Notes under the pieces: model-generated
Databases searched by the model: none
What the model was told of the DNA's origin: nothing
The model's input: only the letters and a program-made list of their open reading frames with translations
In this document: one piece after another, positions 2 through 15,198 of the stretch
Position numbering within the stretch: position 1 is the stretch's first letter
Layout of the letters: every line of letters begins with the position of its first letter
Program-made: the position numbers and the translations under genes
Source of the DNA: Candidatus Micrarchaeota archaeon
GTDB taxonomy: Archaea > Iainarchaeota > Iainarchaeia > JAADDC01
Length of the DNA: 15,383 nt
Direction of reading: 5' to 3'
NCBI GenBank assembly: GCA_027046625.1
Contig: JALTXX010000010.1
Location: 1-15,383 of the forward strand

Positions 2-3000
2 GTGGAGGGGAACAACCTGTTGGCGTGTTGGGTGGCCAACGGTGGGGAGAATGCCGGTACTGGAGGTGGTTACTTTGATGTGGAGGTGGAGGTGACGTAT
101 GAGAAGACGTTATCCACCACTACCCAGATCTGGGTAAGGGTTCCCTCTATACCTGCCGGGACTTCCACTATCTATATGTACTATGGAAACCCGGCAGCTA
201 CAGCCAATATACAGGATTTAAATACCTTTGAAAAGTTTGAGTCCTATACCATAACTCTACCTACCCAGACAGTGGCAGGTGAGTGGTTCTGGTTTGACTT
301 CAACTCACCCTTCAGCGGTACGCCTGTTGTTATTGCGCAGCCAGATACCACATACAACGGAGCCCAAGAGTTAACCTTAAGGTTGAGAGACATCAATACA
401 ACGGGATTCTACATTAGACAGCAGGAACCATCAAACAGAGACGACATCCACGCATCAGAAGCTGTTCACTACTTTGCTGCATTACCAGGCTGCTGGAAGA
501 TTAGAGGTCTAAACATCACATTCTGTGCAGGCAGATTTGAAACCAACATATGGGAACCCGGAGATGTGGTGTATACAGGACCATCAAATACGGTTACATT
601 CCCCATAACCTTTGCTACTACTCCAGTAGCTCACGTTCAGATGCAGGATTATAACTATACCGGCTTTGTAAGGACAAGAATATACTCCGTTTCCACAACA
701 GATCTCTCCACTAACCCGGAGCCAGAAGGGGGTATAACCACCGTTCCCTCCACATGGGTAACTCTAGGATGGATGGTCTTTGAACGAACAACCACCACAG
801 GCTATGAGAGTGGTATATATCCCTCTTGTGACGCAGATGTGGGTGCTGGTACATGGTGTACCATCACCTTCACCAACACATACACAAACCCATCCGTTAT
901 TATGCATGCCCAAACTGGTATAGGCGGTGATTCCTTCGGATTAAGAGGGAGAAATCTCTCCTCTACTTCGGTGGATGTAACAATAGAGGAGGATCAAACT
1001 GCAGACACGGAGCAGTCCCACGTAGCAGAGGACATTGGATACACAGTGATTGAGGAAGGCACATACTATCTTACAAAGGTAGTAAGTGATCCTCCGTCTT
1101 ACAACGTCGGGAGCGAAGAAACTGTAAACGGTTCCTATCTTTGGGTAAGGGAGTATCCCTTCAAAGGCTATCTAGTGGGTGTGATAGAATACAACGATAA
1201 TGGAAACTGGATCCTTGTAACAACAGACTTTAATACTTTCCAGACATGGGATGGCTTCGTAGACTTATCCTCCTTCTGGGTAGACTGGAACACGTGGGGA
1301 GCCAACCAGGGTATCTACAGAGCTAGGGTGTTTGCACACAACGTATATGGAGAAGAGTTAAACAGTTTTGGAACTCCCTTGGAGGCTTACTACATCTTTG
1401 AGGTAGGTCCGCCACCTATAGACTTTACTATTACTGACTTCCGCCTCTACGAAGCCAATACACGAACTGGAGGTACATTCATAGACTCTGGATTAGAAAA
1501 GACTTACTACCTTGAGGTAAACAAATCCTATCGCCTTGAATTCGATGTTACTCTAAGCCCCTATAGCTATGATTGGAATGTAGCAGACTCTAATGTATAT
1601 GCGTCCGAGCTAAATATCGACTGGAATGTGTACGATATCTGGTATACCATCTCTTCAGACTTTAATGGAGGTGTGTTCGATGGAAATGTAGAGTGGAATA
1701 CAGCTCAGGGAGGCACTGTTAGTGCGTCCCAGACAGCCACATTCAAATTCCTGCTCACTCCTACCAACGAGGGGGATTATAACCTCTACCTCTTCGTAGA
1801 GCATATACTTGACAGCGATTCTAACTGGGTTAGGATAGTATCCTTTGTGCCTGATACTGTTCCTCCCAATCCAATAGAATATAACTTGCTCAACATTGAT
1901 ACCAATCAAGTAGGCTGGGAGATAAACGTTATTAGAACATTTGAGCAGGCCAAAATCTATGCTACATGGGATGAGGACATTAACGAGGCTTATGTGGAGT
2001 ATAACTCTACCTCTCCCCTCCTAATAACCTCCACTATCGTCCCCTCTGGCAACTACACAGAGTACACGTTTAACATAACCAAGTTCTGGCTACTTGGCCC
2101 ACACGTTGCAAAGATATACGCCTCAGATCTATCAGGGAACTGGAGAAACGATCTGAACTACCTAATCTTCAACGTATGGGGATTGGCAGATGTTAATGGG
2201 GCAGAATTGAACACTTCCGCTGTATACGAAGGCAATACCGTAGAAATAAGGGCCACTGTGGTGGATAGAACAGATAATAACAGCCCAATATCTAACATTA
2301 TTGTTTATTTCGATATAAATGGAACGTTACTAACCGCCACAACAGACAGTAACGGAGAAGCTAACATTACATACACCTTCACATCCGCTGGTACCTATGA
2401 GATCAATGTATACACAGAGGGCAACCTTGCACGCTATTATCTCCCTGGATTGTCCCAAATCATCGAGCTTAATGTATACGAACTTGTACCTCCTGACTAC
2501 AACAATGTAACATATCCTACAAAGATACACAGAGGCGAAGTATTTGAGGTAAATGTGCAATGGATAGACAATCACAAAGTAACCGAGACAAACCTCTACG
2601 TTAGGAAAACACCCTCCGCACCATTCCTAACAGGATGGAACTATAGAAGGGCTATATACGTCTCCTCTCCAGCAGACATAAACGAATATCAGGTGTTGAT
2701 AGTATTCGACTCAAGAAGTCTCATACTGGATGGGAAGATGAACAGTGATTGTTCAGATATTAGAATTACCCTTGCGGATGGAACCACAACACTCCCCTAT
2801 TGGATAGAAAGAGGATGTGGCGAGACCAACACCTTTGTATGGTTTGAAGCAAATCTTACCAACGGAAGTAACATGTTCTACCTCTACTATGGTAATAACT
2901 CTGCTACTTCAGAGTCTAATATCGATGCCGTAATGATACCAGGTATTCACCTTACAACTGGCAGATGTACAGATGCAACCCTATGTAATTACACAGACAA

Positions 3001-5494
3001 TCACAATGAATTTGACCAGATAAGAGCTACGATGCCGTCCATTGATGGCAGCGGGTATGTAACGGAGGTAAACCATGATCTAAATCCCTTCGGATCAAGT
3101 GACAACTACTATTCCAGGTACAGATTCATATTTGTGGCCCCTACTGCAGGAACGTACACCTTCTACACAAACTCAGACGATGCATCGGAAGTAGGTGTTT
3201 GGATAGCCGATGGATATGGAGGTGGACTCACAACACCCTCTCCACATCCCTTCGGCGAACATAATGTAGTATCTTACTGGTATGGCGGTCATGGAGCAAC
3301 AACGGCATGTAGTACCGGTGGGGTTGCCGGCAGTATATCCCTTAACTCAGGAGATACCATATGGATAGACTACATGCAATCTGAATGGCTAGGAGGGGAG
3401 CTTGCCCAGTTGTGTGTATCCATAAATGGAGGTACTGCTCAGCTGGTATCTACATCCAACTTCTCCCTATATGCAAGGAAGTACATAACCCCCGATCCCT
3501 CTGTTACGGTAGGTGCAGAAGAAACCGATTGGGTATTGGTTGACACTAATACAAACATAGACTCCAACAATGTAGTTGTAACACTTGAATGGAATGTTCC
3601 AACTACTGAACCCCTTGGAGGTCACCAGTGGAAGGAAAGGGGGAAGGACTGGAGTGGTAATGTAACAGAAACTAATATCTATGAATTTAATGTATGGGGG
3701 TGGGCTATAGTAGCCGATTCCTACGTAGATCCTCCCTCTGTAAATCCAGATCAGAATGTTACCATGTTCTGTAAGGTCATTGACAAGGATACGAACATTC
3801 CACTCAACACATACGATGTAAACTTCTACTGGGATGGTAATTATCTAGGAACGGTAGAAACCAACATTGAAGGGTGGGCTAGCTTTGAATATAATGTTGG
3901 TAGTGTCACTGGTTTGCACTCATTTTCCTGTGTTATAGGCAGTGAACCCCTCATGCTATACGATCCCTATCCAGGACAAGATAGTGCAGTTGAAACGGTA
4001 AATGTTACAACATCTTCCGACACAGACCCGCCAGATGCGGTAGAGTGGAATGTGATAGACCTTAACCTTTCAAGGGAAGGTAAGGAGATCAACATATATA
4101 GAGGCGATGAGCTGAACTTCTGGAGTGTATGGGATGAGAATCTACAGAGGGCATGGGTAGAGTACAGCCCTGATGGTGTTACAGATACCAACTTAGAGGC
4201 TAATGTAGACCTTAACAGGGCATACGCAATTATGTACACATCCACATGGAGTAGAGGGCTTCACACCCTCCTAATGAGAGGCATGGATGATGCAAATAAC
4301 ATTTCCATCGATGCAAACTCTGCAGAGGTGAATGTATTCGTCTGGGTTACATCAAATGTAGAATGGGTATCACCCACAGGTACGGTGGATAGAACTGCAG
4401 ATATGAATGCTGTATGCAGGGTATACGAGGGAGATACAAATGTAGGCATCCCCAACTACACGGTGTACTTCTACTCCTCCTACGGAGGGGGTACATTCCT
4501 CGGATCTGCAGATACCAACAGCGATGGATACGCCACACTCTTTGTAGATCTAAACAACTACTACGGAACCTACACCTTCTGGTGTGAAATACAGGATGAT
4601 CTAACAAGATACTATGAGGCAAATATCTCCACAGACTCTACAACCATAACAGTGGCTGCCATAAACCTTAGAGCTACAAACGTGGATGTAAACATTACCT
4701 CTCCACCTAGAGAGGGAGATCTCATACTCATAGAGGGCAACATTTTGAACGAGTATGATCCTGTTGACACAAATGTTGAAATACGAATAGAAAGGAATGA
4801 AGGAAACTTTACACTGTTTGAGAGCTATAGAGTATTCCATAGCTTTGCCTCAGGAGAGGAGAATACATTTACATACGTATGGTCTACATATCCAGGAACA
4901 TACAGGATATTCATAGTGGCAGATCCGGACAATACAGTTTCGGAGGAGAATGAGCTGGACAACAACACCTACATAGAGCTAAATGTACAGTCTTGGACGG
5001 TACTCTATGGTGAGGTTAACCTTGATGCCGTACTCGGCGGGGGTGCAGACGTATTCTACAACTGGGAAGGACTTGACGGTATTGCTATCTTCTATGACAG
5101 CGATTACTCCATCGATATAGATCAGATCAACCCGCTAAACGATGTAAACGATCTAAGACTAGCTGATATTGTTCTTAACATGTATGGTAGTTGGGATTCC
5201 ATAGAGTACACCTACGATAGTAATAGAGATGGGAATATCGACAATTTCTACACCTTTATCATAGGTAACAGAGCAGTAACTATGCCTGTAATATATGAAG
5301 ATAATTGGCCCGTGGGCATAGGATTTGTAGGCACCGCCTTTGATGGCAACCAACCCATTGTATTTGTCACAGAAATACGCAAGGGGAGTAGCTGCTCATA
5401 TGGAGTATGTGACTACGTAGTAAGAATACCCGCGCTCCTTAGGGACCAATCCACTGCCACAAGCAGGATAGGTCTGAAGTTTATCCCTCAGTAG
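2..5494 (+). CDS. Giant modular extracellular adhesin-like protein, 5'-truncated: partial DUF2341 with 3 H-type-lectin-like repeats, 3 paired Ig-like repeats, DUF2341 with PA14 insert, CARDB, C-terminal domain
   Basis: The frame is open from the window edge, so the true start is probably upstream. T/N/D/V/Y-rich beta composition. DUF2341 motifs WNYRRAI..DCSDIRIT..LPYWIE..FYLYYGN and QIWVRVPSIP..IYMYYGN. PA14 motif FVAPTAGTYTFYTNSDDAS. CARDB motif GTYRIFIVADPDNTVSEENELDNN. No C-terminal TM helix. Confidence 0.85.
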   Translation: MEGNNLLACWVANGGENAGTGGGYFDVEVEVTYEKTLSTTTQIWVRVPSIPAGTSTIYMYYGNPAATANIQDLNTFEKFESYTITLPTQTVAGEWFWFDFNSPFSGTPVVIAQPDTTYNGAQELTLRLRDINTTGFYIRQQEPSNRDDIHASEAVHYFAALPGCWKIRGLNITFCAGRFETNIWEPGDVVYTGPSNTVTFPITFATTPVAHVQMQDYNYTGFVRTRIYSVSTTDLSTNPEPEGGITTVPSTWVTLGWMVFERTTTTGYESGIYPSCDADVGAGTWCTITFTNTYTNPSVIMHAQTGIGGDSFGLRGRNLSSTSVDVTIEEDQTADTEQSHVAEDIGYTVIEEGTYYLTKVVSDPPSYNVGSEETVNGSYLWVREYPFKGYLVGVIEYNDNGNWILVTTDFNTFQTWDGFVDLSSFWVDWNTWGANQGIYRARVFAHNVYGEELNSFGTPLEAYYIFEVGPPPIDFTITDFRLYEANTRTGGTFIDSGLEKTYYLEVNKSYRLEFDVTLSPYSYDWNVADSNVYASELNIDWNVYDIWYTISSDFNGGVFDGNVEWNTAQGGTVSASQTATFKFLLTPTNEGDYNLYLFVEHILDSDSNWVRIVSFVPDTVPPNPIEYNLLNIDTNQVGWEINVIRTFEQAKIYATWDEDINEAYVEYNSTSPLLITSTIVPSGNYTEYTFNITKFWLLGPHVAKIYASDLSGNWRNDLNYLIFNVWGLADVNGAELNTSAVYEGNTVEIRATVVDRTDNNSPISNIIVYFDINGTLLTATTDSNGEANITYTFTSAGTYEINVYTEGNLARYYLPGLSQIIELNVYELVPPDYNNVTYPTKIHRGEVFEVNVQWIDNHKVTETNLYVRKTPSAPFLTGWNYRRAIYVSSPADINEYQVLIVFDSRSLILDGKMNSDCSDIRITLADGTTTLPYWIERGCGETNTFVWFEANLTNGSNMFYLYYGNNSATSESNIDAVMIPGIHLTTGRCTDATLCNYTDNHNEFDQIRATMPSIDGSGYVTEVNHDLNPFGSSDNYYSRYRFIFVAPTAGTYTFYTNSDDASEVGVWIADGYGGGLTTPSPHPFGEHNVVSYWYGGHGATTACSTGGVAGSISLNSGDTIWIDYMQSEWLGGELAQLCVSINGGTAQLVSTSNFSLYARKYITPDPSVTVGAEETDWVLVDTNTNIDSNNVVVTLEWNVPTTEPLGGHQWKERGKDWSGNVTETNIYEFNVWGWAIVADSYVDPPSVNPDQNVTMFCKVIDKDTNIPLNTYDVNFYWDGNYLGTVETNIEGWASFEYNVGSVTGLHSFSCVIGSEPLMLYDPYPGQDSAVETVNVTTSSDTDPPDAVEWNVIDLNLSREGKEINIYRGDELNFWSVWDENLQRAWVEYSPDGVTDTNLEANVDLNRAYAIMYTSTWSRGLHTLLMRGMDDANNISIDANSAEVNVFVWVTSNVEWVSPTGTVDRTADMNAVCRVYEGDTNVGIPNYTVYFYSSYGGGTFLGSADTNSDGYATLFVDLNNYYGTYTFWCEIQDDLTRYYEANISTDSTTITVAAINLRATNVDVNITSPPREGDLILIEGNILNEYDPVDTNVEIRIERNEGNFTLFESYRVFHSFASGEENTFTYVWSTYPGTYRIFIVADPDNTVSEENELDNNTYIELNVQSWTVLYGEVNLDAVLGGGADVFYNWEGLDGIAIFYDSDYSIDIDQINPLNDVNDLRLADIVLNMYGSWDSIEYTYDSNRDGNIDNFYTFIIGNRAVTMPVIYEDNWPVGIGFVGTAFDGNQPIVFVTEIRKGSSCSYGVCDYVVRIPALLRDQSTATSRIGLKFIPQ

Positions 5495-5585: not shown

Positions 5586-5594
5586 GGAGGGTGA
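5586..5594 (+). promoter_or_regulatory. Shine-Dalgarno site of the archaellin
   Basis: GGAGGGTGA, 5 nt before GTG at 5600. Confidence 0.65.
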
Positions 5595-5599
5595 AAGAC

Positions 5600-6217
5600 G
5601 TGAAGGGACAGGTAGCAATCGGAACCCTTGTGGTATTTATAGCGCTGGTGATAACAGCGGCCCTTGCAGCTGGAGTACTTGTGGCTGCCACACAGAATGC
5701 CCAGAGCAAAGCTGAGGCTGTATACGGAAAAACGCTGGAAAAGGCCACGTATGCCTTTAAGTTCAGAGGTGTAGAGGGTCTTACAACGGCAGACGACAGC
5801 AACATAGAGTATGCCATCTTCTATATAGAGCTCGCCCCAGGTTCCGGCGAAATAGACCTAGAGGATGTTACAACCATTTGGAGGGCAGCAAACGGAGCAG
5901 AGTACGACGAATATGACTTTAATACAACCTCTGTAGATCTGAACACAGCGGCACTATCCAGCTCCAATCCATTCACCGCAACACTGGCAGCTGGTAAGTT
6001 TTACGTGGTTGGAAACAGAACATCTGCCAACGAGGCAACACCAGACAGGTATGTAGAATCTGGTGAGCTTTACGCCATAGCAATAAAGCTTCCAGCAACT
6101 CTTGACGAAGGTGAAGACTGGCAGATAACAGTAAGGGCACCCTATATCCAGGATACTTCAGTAGATGGTATAGCACCTGAGGTGCTACAAAGCGGCAGAA
6201 TAGAGAAGTTGGCATAA
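5600..6217 (+). CDS. flaB: Archaellin, probably the major filament subunit
   Basis: Class III signal peptide and conserved helix MKG|QVAIGTLVVFIALVITAALAAGVLV. Archaellin motif IELAPGSGEIDL. Start moved from 5591 to GTG 5600 on SD spacing. Has its own promoter, SD and terminator. Confidence 0.9.
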   Translation: MKGQVAIGTLVVFIALVITAALAAGVLVAATQNAQSKAEAVYGKTLEKATYAFKFRGVEGLTTADDSNIEYAIFYIELAPGSGEIDLEDVTTIWRAANGAEYDEYDFNTTSVDLNTAALSSSNPFTATLAAGKFYVVGNRTSANEATPDRYVESGELYAIAIKLPATLDEGEDWQITVRAPYIQDTSVDGIAPEVLQSGRIEKLA

Positions 6218-6250: not shown

Positions 6251-6943
6251 TTATATTGCAAAAGCCGAGATATCTATTATCAACCCAAACCTTGGCTCCA
6301 CACGGAACTTTATAACCTTTGTGACATCCCTTTCTGCCTTCCAACGCTTCACATAGATTACATTCTTTATATCGTCACCCACAACCTCCTGTTTTAATTC
6401 TAGGTAATTATCTGCAACCTCTCTTAGCTGTTCCATAAGCTTCACATCCATATTACCAGGATCGTAGGTGATAATGATGCTCCTTCCCTTCTGGATAACC
6501 TTCTTCAAGAAATTGATAAACTGGAACACTTGAGACTCCCTTAATGGCTCATCGGGCAGCATAAGGTTAATGGAATCTATAATAGTAACTTCATTAATGA
6601 AAAGGAACTCCGCTCTCATCAAACGTTCAAGCAGGTCCTTCTTCTTTTTAAGCTTCTTCGCAGAGGGTGGAAAAACGGGGAAGAACATCAGTCTCCTCTT
6701 TACTAGGTAGGGTAGCACATTGTATCCTAGCGATTGCATCTGTCTAAGGAATCCCTTGGTGGATAGCTCCGTGGAAAGATAAGTTACTGTATGTCCGTTT
6801 TCTAGCAATCCAAAGGCTATTCGTTGTGACAGTATACTCTTTCCTGATCCATCTTCTCCCTCTATGATGGTTATGGTTCCTGGTGCTATGCCACCGCCTA
6901 GTCTCCTTCCTAACTCATCTCTCTCCAGATTTATAGAGTACAT
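6251..6943 (-). CDS. flaH: Archaellum KaiC/RecA-like nucleotide-binding protein ArlH/FlaH
   Basis: N-terminal RDELGRRLGGGI, Walker A GEDGSGKS, TYLSTE, Walker B IIDS, C-terminal IKFRVEPRFGLIIDIS. SD AGGTGA overlaps the upstream stop. Confidence 0.95.
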   Translation of the reverse strand: MYSINLERDELGRRLGGGIAPGTITIIEGEDGSGKSILSQRIAFGLLENGHTVTYLSTELSTKGFLRQMQSLGYNVLPYLVKRRLMFFPVFPPSAKKLKKKKDLLERLMRAEFLFINEVTIIDSINLMLPDEPLRESQVFQFINFLKKVIQKGRSIIITYDPGNMDVKLMEQLREVADNYLELKQEVVGDDIKNVIYVKRWKAERDVTKVIKFRVEPRFGLIIDISAFAI

Positions 6944-6950
6944 CGGTGTC

Positions 6951-7646
6951 TCACCTGCTCATAATATCCTTTATTGATAGGATGTATTCCAGCACTCTAT
7001 TGTGTTCTTCTGGGTCTAATTGCACATTTACCATCTCTGGCTCCAGATCTACCCGTATTCCCTCTGCATACCTCTTTAGTACATCTGCTACTTCCTCCGA
7101 TATCCACCTAATCTCCACATAGTATCTTAGTAGTTCCTCTATTCCACTGTGGCCCACCTTTTCTACCATAAAACGTGCCCAATCCATTAGCACCTCTATC
7201 ACCTTGGGGTTGGTTAGATCTACATAGGAAAGCACCGTTTCTTCCTGCGATTCTTTAGTTTCCTTCTTCTCAACCTCTACCACCACTGGTTTTTCTTCCA
7301 CTTCTTGCACTCTCTCCTCCATTTTTTCCTTTCTCAACGGCAGCGCCTTTTCCTCCTCATCAAGGAAGGGGTTTAGCTGGTTCATTACTATCTCATATAT
7401 GGAAGCCAACTGGCTCATAGTCTTTTCCATCTCTTCCAACTTCCCATTAACACTCTTTACGCTCTCTTTAACCACATTCAACGCATCTTCCAATCTCTCC
7501 ACCTTCTTCTCCAAGTCCTCTACCACGATATTAAGGTCTCTTCCCTCATTCTTTGGCTGTGTCTGCTGAGGCGCTGGTCCTATGGATATAGCTGGTTTTG
7601 GGGGCGGTGTTTGAGGGGTTTCCTTCTTTTTTAGGAAGTCAAACAC
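6951..7646 (-). CDS. flaCDE: Fused ArlC-ArlD/E (FlaCDE) switch/scaffold protein
   Basis: Coiled coil ending in FlaC-type LASIYEIVMNQLNPF. C-terminal FlaD/E-type WARFMVEKVG..LLRYYVEIRWISEEV..LDPEEH. GTG start with a perfect SD. Confidence 0.85.
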   Translation of the reverse strand: MFDFLKKKETPQTPPPKPAISIGPAPQQTQPKNEGRDLNIVVEDLEKKVERLEDALNVVKESVKSVNGKLEEMEKTMSQLASIYEIVMNQLNPFLDEEEKALPLRKEKMEERVQEVEEKPVVVEVEKKETKESQEETVLSYVDLTNPKVIEVLMDWARFMVEKVGHSGIEELLRYYVEIRWISEEVADVLKRYAEGIRVDLEPEMVNVQLDPEEHNRVLEYILSIKDIMSR

Positions 7647-7650
7647 ATTC

Positions 7651-7658
7651 TCACCTCC
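7651..7658 (-). promoter_or_regulatory. Shine-Dalgarno site for flaCDE
   Basis: GGAGGTGA on the minus strand, overlapping the upstream TAG, 4 nt before GTG. Confidence 0.8.
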
Positions 7659-8428
7659 TAAGGGAATATTTTCACTATCTTTCCTTCAAATCCTCTTGGG
7701 AGCATGAGCTCCTTTGATTCCTTATATCCTTGGGCATGTCCCATCTCTAAAGTTATAGAGGATGCTGGATAGAGGGGGGATCTCAATCTGTAAAAGATCA
7801 TTATCTCCTGATCCCTTAGAAGAGATACGGTATCTCCTTTATCATAACAATCCGTCCAAAGTACAGTATAGAAGGATCCTATACGGGGATCTGACGAGTT
7901 TGGAGGAAATGGGTCCATAACATAAGTGATATAGTCCAAGGAGTACCTGTTTAATCTCCTCATAGCATTGATAAGAGTGGCTCTGCAGGCTGGTTGCGGA
8001 GGAGAATCACCATTTGAAATATAGTCTGCTATAATAATTAGTTCGTTCCTTTCTGGATCACCATTTACATCTGAGAACTCTGTAGGAAGATCTTCTGGTT
8101 TTACGTATCTAATACCTTCTAAAGCCTCATCTTCCGTAATCACACTTAAGGTAGTTTTCTCAAGATTCATTGGATTGGATCCGGGATAGAGAGCAGCCTT
8201 TATAAGCAAATGGGTCACACACCTCTCAGATCCACAGATATTTGTTACACCCTTCACCTCCTTTATCATAACTCTATCCAATAACATCCTTTCCTGTTCC
8301 TTTTGAATTGATCTTGCCTTCACTCTCAATTCATCTGCCGTTTGCACCAATAGTATTGCCACTACAACGGCTGTAAGTATAATGGCGATCATCACAAGAA
8401 TGGTGCCTATTCCACTCTGGCCTTCCAT
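7658..8428 (-). CDS. Divergent archaellin-family protein (minor archaellin-like)
   Basis: MEG|QSGIGTILVMIAIILTAVVVAILLVQTA class III-like N-terminus. ALYPGSNPMNLEKT resembles the archaellin xPGSxxIDL motif. Central insertion with cysteines. Confidence 0.8.
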   Translation of the reverse strand: MEGQSGIGTILVMIAIILTAVVVAILLVQTADELRVKARSIQKEQERMLLDRVMIKEVKGVTNICGSERCVTHLLIKAALYPGSNPMNLEKTTLSVITEDEALEGIRYVKPEDLPTEFSDVNGDPERNELIIIADYISNGDSPPQPACRATLINAMRRLNRYSLDYITYVMDPFPPNSSDPRIGSFYTVLWTDCYDKGDTVSLLRDQEIMIFYRLRSPLYPASSITLEMGHAQGYKESKELMLPRGFEGKIVKIFP

Positions 8429-8488: not shown

Positions 8489-10183
8489 CTACCCCGTAGT
8501 AATTTCAACAGCTCCAGAGGTTGGTGTAATTAAGGCTACTGCTATATCCGTTAAGTAGTACACAATGAGCAGTCCTAACACAAGGATTACATAGTGGAAG
8601 GTTGCTCCCACCTTCAATCCACCGTCTAACACTTTTATCATAATAGATAGTATCACTGCTTCCACCGCAAAAATATACACCATCATATTAACCATGGGCC
8701 ATAGATTTACATTGAAATTCAGGGCAAAATTTATCATGGCTGCTGCTTCTCCCTCCATTATAGAAGCAAAGGTATTCTTTAGCATGTCAAACATGGAGGC
8801 TAATGCCTTGACAGCCAGAAACACACCCAACGCAACTCCCCAGTAGGTTCCATATATCATACCTCTTGCCCCTCCTGCCGTCTGGGATCTTAGCTTCCTT
8901 GCATCCAGCAAAACATGTAGCTGATCTCCAATAATGTTTCCTGTAGCCTTTGGATCTGCACCTGCATAAAGGGCTTTTACGAACAGCTCATTAAACTTTG
9001 TGAGTATGGCAGAACCTAACTCCTTAGAAAACAGTCTAAAGGAAGTAAATACATTCCTTGTAATGGCAAGTCTCCTGTATAATCGTTCTAGTGCTTCGTT
9101 CATCCCTAGATAAGTATGTCTCCTGAGTCTTCTTACAACGGGGATTACTGCTCCCTCCCTTATTTGTACCAGTTCACCAAAGGTTCGTATAAAGGGCAAG
9201 TATGACTGCTCCCTCCTTCTTATCAACATCTCCGCCCTCCTTGATAGGTATGCAGGAACGATAAGAGGCACTACAGTTAATGCAACAGTTATGATGGGAT
9301 CGAGTCCCATTAACAGTCCTGCAGCAAATACTATTAGGGATAGAACCACTCCTATGGCTGTAGCAATAATGGCAGTCATGTGTTCCGGAGATATGTCGGG
9401 AAAGTCATTTGCAAGCTTGTCTGGAGGCACGGAAGCCCTTGCAGCCACAAATATAACCACATTCACTAATAGAATGGAACCTGCGTAGGCTGCATACAGG
9501 TATACCTCAGGTACTGGAAAGAATATGGGTAGCATTGCTATAAACGCCAATATAAACGCTATGGCCACCATTAAAGCCGAAAATAGCTCTGCCACTGTAC
9601 TTATCTTGTATATGGATTCTTGGTACATAGTGTAAATACTTCTAAGTATGTCCCTGAACTGGGTTTGGAAGAATAACACCACATCCTCACCGTACTCCAC
9701 CACCTGAGACAACCTAGCCAGAAAATCAGAAAATACCGGAGATGGAGTTGTATCCGCTACTACTTTACAGGCCTTTGAATAACCCAGCTTCCAATCCTTA
9801 GCAAGGTGATACAACCTTTTCATCTCCTTGGATATCTCTCCAAACTCCTTTGTTTCTGCCATTGTACTAAAGAATTCATCATAACTTGTCTTTGAGGTGG
9901 CCATAGAGTTCATGAACACCACGAAGAAAGGGAAGTTCTTGTCTATATCCTCCTTTTTTACATAAAGAGGAATATTCATCGATAGTATTGCCAGCAATAA
10001 CGATAGCACAAGCAAAAACGGAATGAGAAAGATGATGAAGTCAAGAGAGAATATGCCCAGCTCTACAAATGGGTAAAGAAGCAGCATAAATACGATGAAG
10101 ATAGAAAACCACGCAATACCTATGTATACCACCAACTCCCTCAAGGAGGTTATACCCAGCGCGTGGATAAGTTTATCCATCAT
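8489..10183 (-). CDS. flaJ: Archaellum membrane platform protein ArlJ/FlaJ
   Basis: 564 aa polytopic membrane protein with two GspF/TadC-like cytoplasmic domains (FGEISKEMKRLYHLAKDWKLGYSKACK..TPSPVFSDFLARL; RRREQSYLPFIRTFG). ATGA overlap with the upstream ATPase. Confidence 0.92.
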   Translation of the reverse strand: MMDKLIHALGITSLRELVVYIGIAWFSIFIVFMLLLYPFVELGIFSLDFIIFLIPFLLVLSLLLAILSMNIPLYVKKEDIDKNFPFFVVFMNSMATSKTSYDEFFSTMAETKEFGEISKEMKRLYHLAKDWKLGYSKACKVVADTTPSPVFSDFLARLSQVVEYGEDVVLFFQTQFRDILRSIYTMYQESIYKISTVAELFSALMVAIAFILAFIAMLPIFFPVPEVYLYAAYAGSILLVNVVIFVAARASVPPDKLANDFPDISPEHMTAIIATAIGVVLSLIVFAAGLLMGLDPIITVALTVVPLIVPAYLSRRAEMLIRRREQSYLPFIRTFGELVQIREGAVIPVVRRLRRHTYLGMNEALERLYRRLAITRNVFTSFRLFSKELGSAILTKFNELFVKALYAGADPKATGNIIGDQLHVLLDARKLRSQTAGGARGMIYGTYWGVALGVFLAVKALASMFDMLKNTFASIMEGEAAAMINFALNFNVNLWPMVNMMVYIFAVEAVILSIMIKVLDGGLKVGATFHYVILVLGLLIVYYLTDIAVALITPTSGAVEITTG

Positions 10184-11808
10184 TCTATCACCACCGGGAA
10201 GGGGAGGCCTTCCAAGCCAAACTCTATATACCTACTTACCAACTCATACACCTTGAAGTAGTCCAAATATCCTCTCTCCACCATCTCCTTTAGTATGGCA
10301 GCTCTTGTTCTCAATTCCTGGTATACCTCCTCCTTTTCCATTCCAAGAGTGGGAGCTACCACCTCCTCTAATACATAGGAGTTATACCATGCCTTGAACT
10401 GATGGGTATCGGTTACCGGATCCCAGCTAAAGGCTTCCCTTGTTACAATACTACCAGTAGGCTGGTGATACCTCTCTATCTCTGAAATGGATATCATTCT
10501 CCTATAGTTTTTTCCTTCCCTCATAACAGACTGCTGAACTGCCACGATTTGAACATTGGGGATGTACTCCTTCGGTACATTTATGGGAGGACCTGATATT
10601 CTTCTTATAAAGGAATTAACGCTACCTGCGTGAAATGTGGACATAACGGGGTGACCTGTTTGCATAGCTTGAAATGCCACATATCCTTCTGCTCCTCTTA
10701 TCTCACCCACGATGATATAGTCTGGTCTAGCTCTAAGGGCTGCCTTGAGAAGGTCGAACATGTCTGCTCTTCCCTCTGCTGTCACAGTTCTTACCCAGTT
10801 CTCATGGGGCACATAAATCTCTGGTGTATCTTCAACGGAGTATATCCTTGCATGGGGTTCTATAAATGTTGTCAAAGCCTTTAATGTAGTTGTTTTTCCA
10901 GCAGCTGTCTCTCCACATATGAAGGCTGAAGAACCGGCCTCTATTGCTAGCCAGAAGTATGCGGCCTCCTCTGGGGATATAGTATTCCACTTTATAAGTT
11001 GAGTAACAGATATGGGAACCTTGGTAAACTTTCTAATGGTAAAGGATGGTCCCCTGATAGATATGTCCCTTGAAAATATTACATTTAACCTTGATCCGTC
11101 TGGCATGGCAGCATCCACAATGGGCCTAACCTCTGTGGCTGGTTTATTGAGCAGTTCTGTTAGCCTAAAGATAAAATCCTCCAGTTCTTCCTCATCCTTA
11201 AAAGACACATTAGTTTCCATGGATCCGAAGATTTTGTGTACTATCCATATGTTGTTAGTTCCTACACATGAGATATCCTCGATATAAGGGTCTCTCATAA
11301 ACACCTCTATGGTGGAATACTGGGCCAATTCCCTTATGAGTAGCTCCCTTATAAAACGTCGTTTCTCTTTTGGCACATAAACCTTACCAAGAAGTACTTC
11401 GTTCAATAATCTATTGAATCCCTCCTCGCTGTGCATAAGCTCTTCTGTAAGCTTTATAAGCAGGGATATAAACTCCTCCTGAGAGGTAGGTATCTTTTCC
11501 ATGAGAGAAACCTTGCTTGTAATGCGATCGTATAATCTCCTGAAGTACTGAAGGTCTTCTCTTGTGTAAGATGGTTCTATTGCAATGTATTTGGGATCTT
11601 CGCCTTCCTTTTTCATTATATGAACAAAGTATGGCTCTCCAACAGGGTATATAACATTTATCTCATCCATAACAGCTACCTTTAGATCCAAGGGTATCTC
11701 CGTTACAAATATTGGTCTCTTCCATGTTCTTTGCAGTCTGTTAACATATTCATTTAGGTGCGGGTTTCTCTTAAGTGCCCTTCTGAATGCGTCCTCCTCA
11801 TGTTTCAC
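10180..11808 (-). CDS. flaI: Archaellum motor ATPase ArlI/FlaI, copy 2
   Basis: NPHLNEY N-terminus, DPYIEDISC, Walker A GETAAGKTT, Asp box VEDTPEI, Walker B YIIVGEIRG, His box TGHPVMSTFH. GTG start overlaps the previous TGA. Confidence 0.93.
   Translation of the reverse strand: MKHEEDAFRRALKRNPHLNEYVNRLQRTWKRPIFVTEIPLDLKVAVMDEINVIYPVGEPYFVHIMKKEGEDPKYIAIEPSYTREDLQYFRRLYDRITSKVSLMEKIPTSQEEFISLLIKLTEELMHSEEGFNRLLNEVLLGKVYVPKEKRRFIRELLIRELAQYSTIEVFMRDPYIEDISCVGTNNIWIVHKIFGSMETNVSFKDEEELEDFIFRLTELLNKPATEVRPIVDAAMPDGSRLNVIFSRDISIRGPSFTIRKFTKVPISVTQLIKWNTISPEEAAYFWLAIEAGSSAFICGETAAGKTTTLKALTTFIEPHARIYSVEDTPEIYVPHENWVRTVTAEGRADMFDLLKAALRARPDYIIVGEIRGAEGYVAFQAMQTGHPVMSTFHAGSVNSFIRRISGPPINVPKEYIPNVQIVAVQQSVMREGKNYRRMISISEIERYHQPTGSIVTREAFSWDPVTDTHQFKAWYNSYVLEEVVAPTLGMEKEEVYQELRTRAAILKEMVERGYLDYFKVYELVSRYIEFGLEGLPFPVVIE
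10189..10221. repeat. 33-nt exact direct repeat, copy A (3' end of flaI copy 2)
   Basis: caccaccgggaaggggaggccttccaagccaaa, identical to 11814-11846. Confidence 0.95.
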
Positions 11809-13376
11809 TCTACCACCACCGGGAAGGGGAGGCCTTCCAAGCCAAAGTAGTAATACTTCTTTATGACATCAAACACATCTCCATACTTCCTGATCTCCTG
11901 TTTTCTCATCTCACTAAGTACGGCTGCTCTCTCATCAAGATCCTTGTAGATATCTCTCGGGTCTGCATACCCCTTGTAGAGGGCTATCTTGCTCTCAAGA
12001 ATATAGGAGTTGTATCTTCCCAGGAACTCTATCCTATCGTAAAGGGGGTCCCACCGAAACACCAACCTAGTCAGTATTCCCTTCCCCTCTTGGTATCCCT
12101 CTATCTCATACACACCCACAACTCTCCTTATAATCTGCCTCCCTCTCCTAAACGAGCGCTGAATAACTACCACATTCAGGTTTGTAATATAGGGGAGAGG
12201 GATATTAATAGGTGGGCCGCTCAGACGTTGTATAATTTTCTTTATATCTCCACCGTGAAACGTAGACATAACAGGGTGGCCTGTTTGCATTGCCTGGAAT
12301 GCTATATTACCTTCCTTCCCTCTTATTTCCCCTACAACAATGTAGTCTGGTCTTGATCTTAGAGATGCCTTGAGAAGATCGAACATGTCTGCCCTTCCTT
12401 CCCTTGCTACGGTTGCCTGCCAATTCTTATGCGGCACGAAAAGTTCTGGTGTATCTTCAACAGAGTATATCTTTGCATCTGGTTTGATAAATGCGGAGGC
12501 TGCTCTCATAGTTGTGGTCTTTCCTGAGGCTGTCGGACCGCAGAAGAATACACTCATACCATTTTCTATAACCAACCAAAGGTATGCAAGCAGCTCTGGG
12601 GAAGCTGTACCAAGCTCTAAAAGATGTATTACACTCATTGGATCTCTCTCTACCAATCTTATGGAAATAGAGGTACCTTCCTTGGAAACCTCTCTTCCAT
12701 ATATGATGTTTACTCTCGAACGTGTTTCTGGAAGGATTCCATCCACTATAGGGTGTGTAACGCTTACCCTCTTGTTCATCCTTAACCCTAATCTAAAGGC
12801 AAAGCTATCCACTTCTTCAAGGGAGGAGAACTCTATGTTAGATCTCATGTTACCCCAAACCTTGTGCACAACATAGGTATGTGTTCTCGCATTTCTCACA
12901 TCTTCAAGATAATCGTCCTTAAAGAAGCTGTCCCACATTTCGTAACCTATAATATTCTTCACCAGCATAAAGAAAACTGCATCTTTGTAGGATGGGTCAA
13001 GCTTTAACTGCTTAAAGGCTTCTTCCATAAGATTTCTGAGAATTTCTGGAGTGGGTTCGTGAGCTTTAACCTCCGAGGCCAGCTCCGTAACCTTTTCCAA
13101 TACCATTTCATATACTTCAGGTGCCTCCACTTTGGGTTCTATGAGATGGTAAATCAGTTCTCCTGTATCCCTATCACGGTAAACATGAACAAAAACGTCC
13201 TCAGATATGGGATAAATTATGTTTGGATCCCTTATCTTGGAGAGGTTTCTATCAAGCTCCTTGTAGAATGTAGGTCTACCGTATATTTTTGACATATTGG
13301 CAACATGGAGTCTTAGATGTGGATATTTTGAGAGAAGAGTATTAACTTCCGCCTCTGTCATCTTTTGTGCTACCAT
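11805..13376 (-). CDS. flaI: Archaellum motor ATPase ArlI/FlaI, copy 1
   Basis: YPHLRLH..PNIIYPISEDVFVHV FlaI-type N-terminus, Walker A GPTASGKTT, VEDTPEL, YIVVGEIRG, TGHPVMSTFH. Confidence 0.9.
   Translation of the reverse strand: MVAQKMTEAEVNTLLSKYPHLRLHVANMSKIYGRPTFYKELDRNLSKIRDPNIIYPISEDVFVHVYRDRDTGELIYHLIEPKVEAPEVYEMVLEKVTELASEVKAHEPTPEILRNLMEEAFKQLKLDPSYKDAVFFMLVKNIIGYEMWDSFFKDDYLEDVRNARTHTYVVHKVWGNMRSNIEFSSLEEVDSFAFRLGLRMNKRVSVTHPIVDGILPETRSRVNIIYGREVSKEGTSISIRLVERDPMSVIHLLELGTASPELLAYLWLVIENGMSVFFCGPTASGKTTTMRAASAFIKPDAKIYSVEDTPELFVPHKNWQATVAREGRADMFDLLKASLRSRPDYIVVGEIRGKEGNIAFQAMQTGHPVMSTFHGGDIKKIIQRLSGPPINIPLPYITNLNVVVIQRSFRRGRQIIRRVVGVYEIEGYQEGKGILTRLVFRWDPLYDRIEFLGRYNSYILESKIALYKGYADPRDIYKDLDERAAVLSEMRKQEIRKYGDVFDVIKKYYYFGLEGLPFPVVVE
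11814..11846. repeat. 33-nt exact direct repeat, copy B (3' end of flaI copy 1)
   Basis: Identical to 10189-10221. Confidence 0.95.
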
Positions 13377-13401: not shown

Positions 13402-14091
13402 TTAAGGAGGATACAGCTTCACTAGAGAGGATCTAAATACCTCCGGCACAAAGAATTCCACTGTAGACGTGCTACCATCATTTACAATAAGTTTAATTCT
13501 TACCTTATCACCAGGTAGTAACCCATCTGGTGGCATATAATATATTACTGCCAGCTGCTTTGGATATATGTGCAGATCGTCTTTCTCGTTGTTACATAAT
13601 ATCCATGCAACGGTATAGTATTCTCCACTAGTAAAGAGGGTATACTCCTCTGCCTTTCCCAGTTCGTTCCAGAACCCCTCAGTTATAATTTCAAACACTC
13701 TCCTGTCAGTATCTTCACACGGATCGCCCGGAGCGCTGTTATCTGCATCACTTGCATCCAAGAAAGTAGCTGACTTTATTACGTTATTCGTAGTGAATTC
13801 CAGTACTGTGTTTCTAAGATCCACAGGGTATCCACCCGAGGCTATGCGAACCGCTATCCTTAGAAGGCGAATTCTGTTGTAGGTGGGAGAGGATGTATTG
13901 GTATCCACAAATCCGTAAACACTATCTATGGTGAGCTTTCTCATAAATTTAGCTTGTGACTCTTTCTGGGTTATTTCTGCCTGGTTTTTCAGAGAGTTAG
14001 CAGCACTCAGTAACACCACGGCAGCTATAGAAGCAATCAACACGATCACAATGAATATTATGAGTGTCGAAATCCCTATATCTCCTCTCAT
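13402..14091 (-). CDS. flaB: Archaellin-family protein (minor archaellin-like), first gene of the operon
   Basis: MRG|DIGISTLIIFIVIVLIASIAAVVLLSAA class III N-terminus and VRIASGGYPVDL motif. Start moved from 14148 to ATG 14091 because a TATA box lies inside the longer ORF's 5' part; 14100 is an alternative start. Confidence 0.85.
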   Translation of the reverse strand: MRGDIGISTLIIFIVIVLIASIAAVVLLSAANSLKNQAEITQKESQAKFMRKLTIDSVYGFVDTNTSSPTYNRIRLLRIAVRIASGGYPVDLRNTVLEFTTNNVIKSATFLDASDADNSAPGDPCEDTDRRVFEIITEGFWNELGKAEEYTLFTSGEYYTVAWILCNNEKDDLHIYPKQLAVIYYMPPDGLLPGDKVRIKLIVNDGSTSTVEFFVPEVFRSSLVKLYPP

Positions 14092-14114
14092 CGCCCCCAT
14101 TAGGTTATGTAGTA

Positions 14115-14121
14115 TTTTAAA
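14115..14121 (-). promoter_or_regulatory. TATA box of the archaellum operon (leaderless)
   Basis: TTTAAAA on the minus strand, 23 nt before ATG 14091. Confidence 0.6.
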
Positions 14122-14137
14122 TGTGGGAATGTGAGTG

Positions 14138-14157
14138 TTACCATCCAAGGATGGTAA
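14138..14157. promoter_or_regulatory. Perfect inverted repeat, candidate transcription-factor operator
   Basis: TTACCATCC-AA-GGATGGTAA, between two divergent TATA boxes. Confidence 0.55.
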
Positions 14158-14193: not shown

Positions 14194-15198
14194 ATGCACC
14201 TAAAAAAGGTGGAAGCAAAAGGGGCGTTACACGTTTTGGATGATCTATCTCCCTATGCATGGGAAAAACTAAGTAGGTTTGAGTATAATGGTAAAAAGGG
14301 TTTTGAGGGTGTGAAATCCTTCCTTATGGAAACACATGGGTATAGGAATGTAGTTTTTGAACCGTACGGAATATATAAGGCGATCACAGGGGCTCTCAAT
14401 TCTGTTATAAGAGATGTAAAACATAATGCATTCATCATAGTTGGCCGATCTGGCCTTGACCATATTCATAGAAAAGGAATTAGAGCGCCCTTTGAAGTAC
14501 ACAAAAAGAGAAAAAATATATTCTGGCTTAACGTCAAAAGAGAATCCCAGATAAATCCCGCTTCAAAAGATCCTATGTCAGCAGAGTTTCTGGCTGGAAT
14601 CCGTCACATTGTAACTCAGCTTCCCAAAAAGTCTAGAGTGTTTGTATTTGACGATATTATAAGAACAGGTAGTGTGATGAAGAACATTGCAAGGGCTTTG
14701 GCAGACTTTGCCCGCAAAGAGGGCAAGGAACCTCCTCAGGTTATACCGCTTTCTCTTATGGTAAGTGCACCTGCATTCATAGCGCGACATGATATCATAT
14801 CCAAGAAGGAGTTTAAGCAGGTAAGAAATATTAAGAAGCTCGCTGAAGACCTTTTCAAATACATAAATGTACATCACGGTATAATTCAAGGTAACAAAAA
14901 CAAGCTTCAAAAGGTGCTCCGCCAAGAGCATGGAATACCCACCAACAGGCTAAGTTCTATCATAAAGAAGTTCGAAAACATGCACGCACCCATAACAGGG
15001 ATAATATCTGATCATATCTATGTAAACACACTATCCCACGAGCTTAGCGACACGGTAGAAATGCTCCTGGAAAGGGGTAGCAGCGGAGACATTATAAACA
15101 AGCTAGCAGACATTGTTGCGGAGAGGGAGAACCGCCTAGAGCCACTAAAGGCAGAAACCAGAGAGTTTGTTATCATGGCACCTCGAACAAGGGTGTAA
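14194..15198 (+). CDS. Basic hypothetical protein with a type I phosphoribosyltransferase-like domain
   Basis: PRPP-binding-loop motif RVFVFDDIIRTGSVM and upstream AFIIVGRSG strand/loop. K/R/H-rich. Own promoter. Confidence 0.7.
   Translation: MHLKKVEAKGALHVLDDLSPYAWEKLSRFEYNGKKGFEGVKSFLMETHGYRNVVFEPYGIYKAITGALNSVIRDVKHNAFIIVGRSGLDHIHRKGIRAPFEVHKKRKNIFWLNVKRESQINPASKDPMSAEFLAGIRHIVTQLPKKSRVFVFDDIIRTGSVMKNIARALADFARKEGKEPPQVIPLSLMVSAPAFIARHDIISKKEFKQVRNIKKLAEDLFKYINVHHGIIQGNKNKLQKVLRQEHGIPTNRLSSIIKKFENMHAPITGIISDHIYVNTLSHELSDTVEMLLERGSSGDIINKLADIVAERENRLEPLKAETREFVIMAPRTRV

Follow-up and report, generated by a model that had tools for sequence, protein, structure and literature searches.

The 15,383-nucleotide contig JALTXX010000010.1 of a Candidatus Micrarchaeota archaeon (here called the window; it is the entire contig, 15.4 kb of a 652-kb genome in 18 contigs that is 94% complete) carries an archaellum operon with two tandem genes for the motor ATPase ArlI, which we call arlI-1 and arlI-2, together with a single gene for the platform protein ArlJ and a single one for ArlH. 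The ArlI pair on this one ArlJ/ArlH is old, selected, co-oriented, and coupled by a stop/start overlap. Its sequences show an ancient duplication of the motor ATPase gene, both copies having been kept as active-looking enzymes, and we infer that both proteins serve the one ArlJ/ArlH motor. Our favored, if tentative, reading is that ArlI-1 and ArlI-2 form a mixed (hetero-)hexameric ring.

Two full-length ArlI genes joined by a stop/start overlap

A preliminary description of the window had reported two full-length tandem ArlI genes joined by a GTGA overlap, with intact Walker A and B, Asp, and His boxes in both, strongly diverged N-terminal halves, and deviations of copy 1 at normally conserved sites, and all of these observations were borne out. 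Two open reading frames (ORFs), one at 11805..13376 (minus strand; arlI-1, 523 amino acids, ATG start) for the divergent "type-1" paralogue and one at 10180..11808 (minus strand; arlI-2, 542 amino acids, GTG start) for the more canonical "type-2" paralogue, both match the NCBIfam equivalog NF058587, "archaellum flagellar ATPase motor FlaI," at the grade of that model, copy 2 with 620.7 bits. At their junction (...GTAGAGTGAAAC), the GTG of copy 2 overlaps the TGA of copy 1, as read directly from the sequence (GTGA, 11805..11808, minus strand). This GTG is the earliest possible start in its frame, and the residues directly after it (KHEEDAF..NPHL) are kept in orthologues. A second overlap, ATGA, likewise read directly, joins the arlI-2 stop to the arlJ start (10180..10183, minus strand). 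The Shine-Dalgarno-like element GGTGGTG lies 5 nucleotides upstream of the start codon at both junctions, i.e., of the arlI-2 GTG and of the arlJ ATG, and relatives keep GGTGGTG or a GGAGG-type element at both arlI gene ends. Because stop/start overlaps are combined with such an element just upstream, translation of arlI-1, arlI-2, and arlJ is probably coupled.

The 3′ ends of the two arlI genes share an exact repeat of 33 nucleotides, at 11814..11846 in arlI-1 and at 10189..10221 in arlI-2 (both minus strand); the encoded proteins are otherwise 42% identical. In three relatives of the genus, several synonymous changes separate the copies over these 11 codons. The repeat looks like either a very short recent gene-conversion tract or the result of selection on the coupling signal.

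This repeat also bears on whether the tandem was made by an assembly chimera, a collapsed or expanded repeat, or contamination, an explanation that we regard as having a negligible chance of being right. In its favor, both arlI gene ends coincide exactly with breaks between Logan unitigs of the probable source run. These breaks are due to the 33-nucleotide exact repeat, which forms its own unitig at about double depth (29.8 versus 14.6). Against it, the three unitigs across the region are equally deep (14.6, 14.7, and 13.9), and a 289-nucleotide contig from a second sample bridges the junction (11740-12028) with zero mismatches. The same arrangement occurs in nine other family genomes and in six public records from different assemblies, and an artifact of this kind is unlikely for copies that are only 42% identical. 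The sequencing run labeled X2, a label distinct from the ArlI X2 discussed below, covered 13 of 30 bins. The pair is not an assembly chimera.

Both copies keep the catalytic motifs and have diverged at different sites

The full-length identity of 42% between the copies is unevenly distributed, with 28% in the N-terminal part (67/237 columns) and 55% in the C-terminal part (154/280 columns). Both copies, like all 12 family orthologues sampled, have an intact Walker A, Asp box, Walker B (GEIRG), and His box. Residues 8-504 of Sulfolobus acidocaldarius FlaI (4II7) align with residues 28-514 of copy 1 at an E value of 4.8e-102, and the Glu of GEIRG is the residue that is replaced in the 4IHQ chain (vgAir, where 4II7 reads vgEir). 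The scores of the copies against TIGR01420 (pilT_fam), 66.8 and 58.9 bits against a cut-off of 319, place neither of them in the PilT/PilU family.

The copy-1 deviations DDYLEDVRN, SISIRLV, and STFHGG are fixed or almost fixed among copy-1 orthologues, whereas copy 2 has the canonical DPYIEDISCVGTN, SFTIRKF, and GETAAGKT motifs. We compared the copies with 181 other (single-type) ArlIs, in which 186 columns are conserved to 90% or more; 26 of these columns differ in the copy-1 group and 23 in the copy-2 group, with 7 common to both. Copy 1 departs from residues that are 99-100% conserved elsewhere at L198 (from E), R203 (from P), 217-218 (DG to ET), L241 (from K), and P281 (from E), and it reads GPTASGKT instead of GETASGKT in Walker A and STFHG instead of STFHA. 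Pro is the usual residue at this Walker A site in bacterial PilB and GspE, and for this reason we do not read it as inactivating. Copy 2 has changed as well, at 23 of the conserved columns, so that neither copy is the untouched original.

The changes fall in different parts of the two proteins. The N-terminal part has 14 changes found only in copy 1 and 4 found only in copy 2, against 5 and 12, respectively, in the C-terminal part (Fisher p = 0.007). Neighboring subunits in the solved FlaI/GspE hexamers contact each other through the N-domain of one and the C-domain of the other. This pattern, mostly N-terminal in copy 1 and mostly C-terminal in copy 2, is a hint of a mixed ring in which specialization would have affected chiefly the N-terminal domain of the type-1 subunit and the C-terminal domain of the type-2 subunit, and in which filament assembly and rotation, done by one ArlI elsewhere, would be divided between non-identical subunits.

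The duplication predates the family

A second uncultured lineage, here the X lineage, also has two ArlIs, X1 (P0017, P0018, and P0021) and X2 (P0117 and P0136). We placed all of these in a careful IQ-TREE phylogeny (LG+C20+F+G4) of 55 rows, which comprised 6 of the 14 copy-1 and 6 of the 14 copy-2 sequences, the 3 X1 and 2 X2 sequences, P0019, P0024, and P0102, 23 representatives of the 181 other ArlIs, 10 proteins from five tandem loci, and, as the outgroup, 2 pilus-type paralogues from the same genome as the window (contigs C16 and C3). An ArlI clade with both copies inside was split from these own-genome paralogues with a support of 100/99. Within it, one clade united copy 1, copy 2, X1, X2, and P0019/P0024 (97/99), in which copy 2 grouped with X2 (100/98) and copy 1 with X1 plus P0019/P0024 (98/97). 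Constraining copy 1 and copy 2 to form one clade cost 40.3 log-likelihood units and was rejected (p-AU, 0.00013); the constrained group was defined after the tree had been seen, while the question itself had been posed by the preliminary description. Because copy 1 groups with X1 and copy 2 with X2, the duplication is older than the family: a single event before the family and the X lineage split gave rise to two paralogues, type-1, which is divergent, and type-2, which is more canonical.

The type-1 relatives P0019 and P0024 read GQIL and GQII for GEIRG, having lost the Walker B Glu, which is now Gln, and the next Arg. The X locus (L102:5976-9957) runs from an archaellin through arlC/D/E, an arlF/G-like gene, and arlH to X1, inside which the locus is cut. 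No relative was found when X1 (P0018) alone was searched against the genome contigs, and a second scan with alignment A1 returned no X-lineage member, with a best identity of 48%. The gene order of the family, B, I1, I2, J, F/G-like, CDE, and H, differs from the usual order of the X lineage, which is B, CDE, F/G-like, H, and I; the comparison indicates that the operon was rearranged in this family, in which the new order is common to both genera (L103 and L110).

Both copies are conserved and constrained within the family

The I1-I2 pair, in constant order, was found in 9 of the 13 other family genomes, spanning two genera: G001, G003, G005, G006, G009, G010, G011, and G012, plus, in part, G002, where only the final residues of copy 1 are left at the contig start and copy 2 is interrupted by 10 N. 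A frameshift in the G002 copy 2 was considered and rejected, as the apparent break is this run of 10 N. In G007, arlH lies at a contig start where the operon is cut, and no arlH was detected in G004, G008, and G013 (83, 87, and 68% complete, respectively). We saw no archaellum operon with a single ArlI among these 13 genomes. The orthologue clusters are sharply bounded, with 13 for copy 1 at 64-83% identity before the next match falls to 46% and 13 for copy 2 at 70-83% before it falls to 53%; the matches that come next are those of the X lineage.

Selection was estimated by pairwise Nei-Gojobori comparisons within each genus (16 pairs per gene). The nonsynonymous rate (dN) ranged from 0.03 to 0.18 across pairs, and all estimable synonymous rates (dS) exceeded 1. 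For copy 1, the ratio of the two (omega) was estimable in 10 of 16 pairs (dS not being computable in 6) and lay at 0.013-0.095; for copy 2, it was estimable in 11 of 16 (dS not being computable in 5) and lay at 0.017-0.071. As dS is saturated, these values are rough and give only an upper-bound impression. Both copies are nevertheless under strong purifying selection and clearly constrained. Most of the checks that the preliminary description had proposed came out in favor of the pair, namely those on its clade membership and age, its conservation in relatives, and a dN/dS below 1 for both copies; a chimera, which would have spoken against it, is excluded by independent assemblies and the bridging second-sample contig.

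In every one of the 16 genome pairs, the dN of copy 1 was higher than that of copy 2, about 1.06 to 1.6 times as high. This faster evolution, together with the loss of residues that are 99-100% conserved elsewhere and the absence of the Walker B Glu in the related P0019 and P0024, would be expected if one copy, probably type-1, were mainly regulatory or scaffolding (for example, a brake, an assembly chaperone, or an adaptor to ArlH/ArlCDE), or if both were largely redundant isoforms that serve dosage or different conditions. We consider this improbable. Copy 1 keeps the Walker A Lys, the Asp box, GEIRG, and both His in all sampled orthologues, its omega does not exceed about 0.1, and copy 2 has changed too at conserved columns; moreover, redundancy alone rarely outlasts so old a duplication in a genome of 0.65 Mb.

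A scan of 215 genomes of the phylum found ArlI-grade genes confined to this family, the sole outside match being a 41%-identical paralogue. On the strength of this distribution, the archaellum operon was probably acquired horizontally.

Independent ArlI pairs in other archaea have lost catalytic residues

A scan of species-representative genomes, from which we kept 74 loci out of the best 80 of 611 candidates, extended the comparison; the loci were ranked by likeness to X1 and are hence a non-random sample, with some cut by contig ends. Two ArlI-grade ORFs were present at 14 of the 74 loci, of which 6 belong to this family, 4 to Candidatus Methanoperedens, 1 to Candidatus Pyrohabitans (Hydrothermarchaeota), 1 to a Thermoplasmata genome, and 2 to "Methanobacteriota archaeon" records that group with Methanoperedens. 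At a 15th locus, L057, the second match is a distant paralogue only. Relatives' loci carry the same gene set of archaellin, arlH, arlJ, and arlC/D/E. The Methanoperedens, Pyrohabitans, and Thermoplasmata pairs branch on the tree as separate duplications, and, like the pair in the window, each has two full-length ArlIs beside a single arlH and a single arlJ. They differ from it in their origins and ages, in the identity of their copies (45-56%, versus 42% here), and in gene order, which is H-I-I-J, or H-I-J-I in Thermoplasmata, whereas the rearranged order of the family places I1-I2-J ahead of F/G, CDE, and H.

They differ further in their catalytic motifs. The first His of the His box is missing in one copy of several independent pairs, namely, the b copy of all six Methanoperedens-type pairs (L062, L065, L077, L090, L098, and L099) and the a copy of the Pyrohabitans and Thermoplasmata pairs, whereas both copies here are intact. 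The Methanoperedens-type b copies read QAGN for QTGH in the His box, and the a copies read DATE for DTPE in the Asp box and have GKTAA in Walker A, so that the motif decay is complementary between a and b copies. The two Methanoperedens-type arlI genes lie in the same frame, with one TGA between them and an ATG 6 nucleotides later. Their reading as one read-through gene was rejected, since the TGA stop is followed by a Shine-Dalgarno-like GAGGT and the ATG.

The loss of the first His in one copy hints at a mixed ring in these pairs, as a degenerate copy would be kept most easily alongside a cooperating active one, and the Gln in place of the Walker B Glu in P0019 and P0024, which are sisters of the type-1 copies, is a similar hint. 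It is possible, though on balance doubtful, that archaella with heteromeric ArlI arose repeatedly, in this DPANN clade, Methanoperedens, Hydrothermarchaeota, and Thermoplasmatota, with building and spinning split between the subunits and with one subunit tending to lose catalytic residues. Such decay would parallel other ring ATPases that have catalytic and non-catalytic subunits. If this is true, the window would show such a motor with two subunits that have both stayed fully catalytic and whose translation is coupled to that of ArlJ.

One mixed ring or two separate motors

The premise of the preliminary description that described archaella have one ATPase agrees with a passage of PMC12448462 (2025), which states that all known archaella operons encode one ATPase. 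We found no description of an archaellum with two arlI/flaI genes in a literature search that covered few subscription journals. The relevant part of PMC4858521 mentions duplicated archaellins and duplicated loci, with no mention of tandem ArlI there. Another DPANN archaeon swims with archaella, as a portion of PMC11104419 reports, and its locus (L064) has a single ArlI.

Among the closest known systems, S. acidocaldarius FlaI/ArlI (4II7 and 4IHQ) resembles the two copies in family, in fold as judged by sequence, in its Walker A/B, Asp, and His boxes, and in its operon partners arlH and arlJ. It differs in that described archaella have one homohexameric ArlI, whereas here two paralogues that are 42% identical share one ArlJ/ArlH, with copy 1 having the GPTASGKT Walker A and several altered N-domain residues. 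Among archaeal type IV filament operons, that of the Cuniculiplasma divulgatum pilus also has two ATPases, CdiPE1 and CdiPE2, and is called an outlier in a section of PMC12448462; it encodes an Aap-like adhesion pilus, not an archaellum. Bacterial type IVa pili offer same-superfamily paralogues on one platform protein, PilB, PilT, and PilU, for which mixed hexamers are proposed in a part of PMC6711533. Both copies here belong to the ArlI clade and give no sign of retraction. PilT and PilU, on the other hand, form a distinct retraction clade and are usually not translationally coupled to PilB.

By analogy with the bacterial split between extension by PilB and retraction by PilT, the two ATPases could instead form two separate homohexamers that dock in turn on the single ArlJ, one of which would assemble the filament while the other rotates it (or serves one direction). 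This would suit the retention of all catalytic motifs in both copies, their strongly diverged N-terminal domains, the conservation of both under purifying selection, and the precedent of the two-ATPase pilus operon CdiPE1/CdiPE2. The single ArlJ and single ArlH of the genome speak for a mixed ring and fit this arrangement as well. However, the coupling by stop/start overlap suggests co-synthesis rather than separate regulation, and autonomous motors are harder to reconcile with the relatives and independent pairs in which Walker B or the His box of one copy is degenerate. We rate two homohexamers as rather unlikely. For the mixed hexameric ring, a further hint comes from an argument made in a section of PMC6711533, where the archaellar ATPase is treated as the sole one and a duplicated ring ATPase would form heterohexamers by default.

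Several observations weigh against the mixed ring or against the history that we propose for it. Copy 1 is barely within the ArlI equivalog, with 550.7 bits against a cut-off of 550, a margin of 0.7 bits. The complete catalytic motifs of both family copies are equally compatible with two separate homohexamers. The test of the N/C asymmetry is post hoc, the pattern having been spotted after the data were seen, and the X pair lacks such a split (7 and 5 changes only in X1, 7 and 7 only in X2; p = 0.71). The adjacency of X1 and X2 rests on pairwise equal-sized contigs and on one locus cut inside X1. Lastly, an early FastTree phylogeny of 224 rows, which included P0137, joined X1 and X2 as sisters (98), implying separate duplications.

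The sister grouping of X1 and X2 vanished in trees without P0137. This sequence, from a 1.8-kb contig, is chimeric, with an X2-like N-terminal part and a C-terminal part identical to X1, and is either an assembly chimera or a genuine recombinant. It was left out of later trees, and the FastTree phylogeny and the first quick tree containing it were set aside.

The archaellum operon and its surroundings

The source organism, a very small archaeon of the DPANN group, comes from a hydrothermal vent; the sequencing run that contains the window is a hydrothermal-vent metagenome. The seven genes of the archaellum operon are tightly packed on the minus strand in the order arlB, arlI-1, arlI-2, arlJ, the arlF/G-like gene, arlC/D/E, and arlH. 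The first gene encodes an ArlB-type archaellin (13402..14148; Pfam PF01917 Arch_flagellin, E = 1.4e-20) and ends 25 nucleotides upstream of arlI-1. Downstream of the ArlI pair follow arlJ (8489..10183; 564 amino acids; PF00482 T2SSF, E = 1.5e-8), the sole platform gene of the cluster, which matches the NCBIfam ArlJ/FlaJ model NF004704 at an E value of 1.9e-84 and under the cut-off of that model; an archaellin-like gene in the arlF/arlG slot (7658..8428; 256 amino acids; PF01917 over residues 3-109 only); an arlC/D/E-type gene (6951..7646; 231 amino acids; PF05377 FlaC_arch plus PF04659 Arch_fla_DE); and the KaiC-like arlH (6251..6943; NF052589 ArlH, 237.7 bits against a cut-off of 215), all on the minus strand. 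On the plus strand, a second archaellin (5591..6217; PF01917, E = 6.7e-24) converges with the operon, and an ORF of 334 amino acids (14194..15198), with no Pfam or NCBIfam match at E < 0.01, diverges from it.

The claim of a single ArlJ and a single ArlH holds genome-wide, as arlH is the only match above the NF052589 cut-off and there is one ArlJ, with no further ArlJ near the cluster. The 652-kb genome has seven FlaI/T2SSE-type ATPases, five of them outside the window (contigs C3, C4, and C16). Four of these five adjoin T2SSF platform genes of their own, and the other, at C3:29456-30766, is without an adjacent platform gene.

The preliminary description had also pictured, from a missing stator and a neighboring adhesin, an archaellum modified for attachment or pulling. 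This idea gained no support. The arlF/G slot is filled by the archaellin-like gene, whose N-terminus (about 110 of its 256 residues) resembles archaellin models and solved archaellins; there is no second gene in the slot, and this one may be ArlF, ArlG, or both fused together. Two archaellins, arlC/D/E, arlH, and arlJ were all found around the ArlI pair by Pfam and NCBIfam, and the operon looks like a complete euryarchaeal-type archaellum, save for the single arlF/G-slot gene. Nor is the pair peculiar to the surface biology of this organism, given the independent pairs in Methanoperedens, Pyrohabitans, and Thermoplasmata.

A giant surface protein with DUF2341 and CARDB domains is encoded at 2..5494 (plus strand). 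Surface proteins adjoin the archaellum operon in both this family and the X lineage, with more than 1830 amino acids in the window and more than 1610 at L102:3-4832 (minus strand). Both carry DUF2341 and CARDB, and the one in the window adds Big_1 and a weak H-type lectin match. The two proteins resemble each other weakly, with 32% identity over 95 residues in the best segment.

What the pair means for the archaellum motor

The pair corrects the generalization of one ATPase per archaellum operon. How one ArlI hexamer can perform both assembly and rotation is presented as an open question in passages of two reviews (PMC6711533 and PMC12448462), and two diverged, selected ArlIs on one ArlJ/ArlH would give a direct handle on it. 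Natural pairs let one ask which subunit binds ArlH, ArlJ, and ArlCDE, and which serves assembly and which rotation. Because pairs occur independently in several lineages and catalytic residues have been lost in some copies, they suggest that there may be a repeatable route from a homomeric to a heteromeric archaellum motor.

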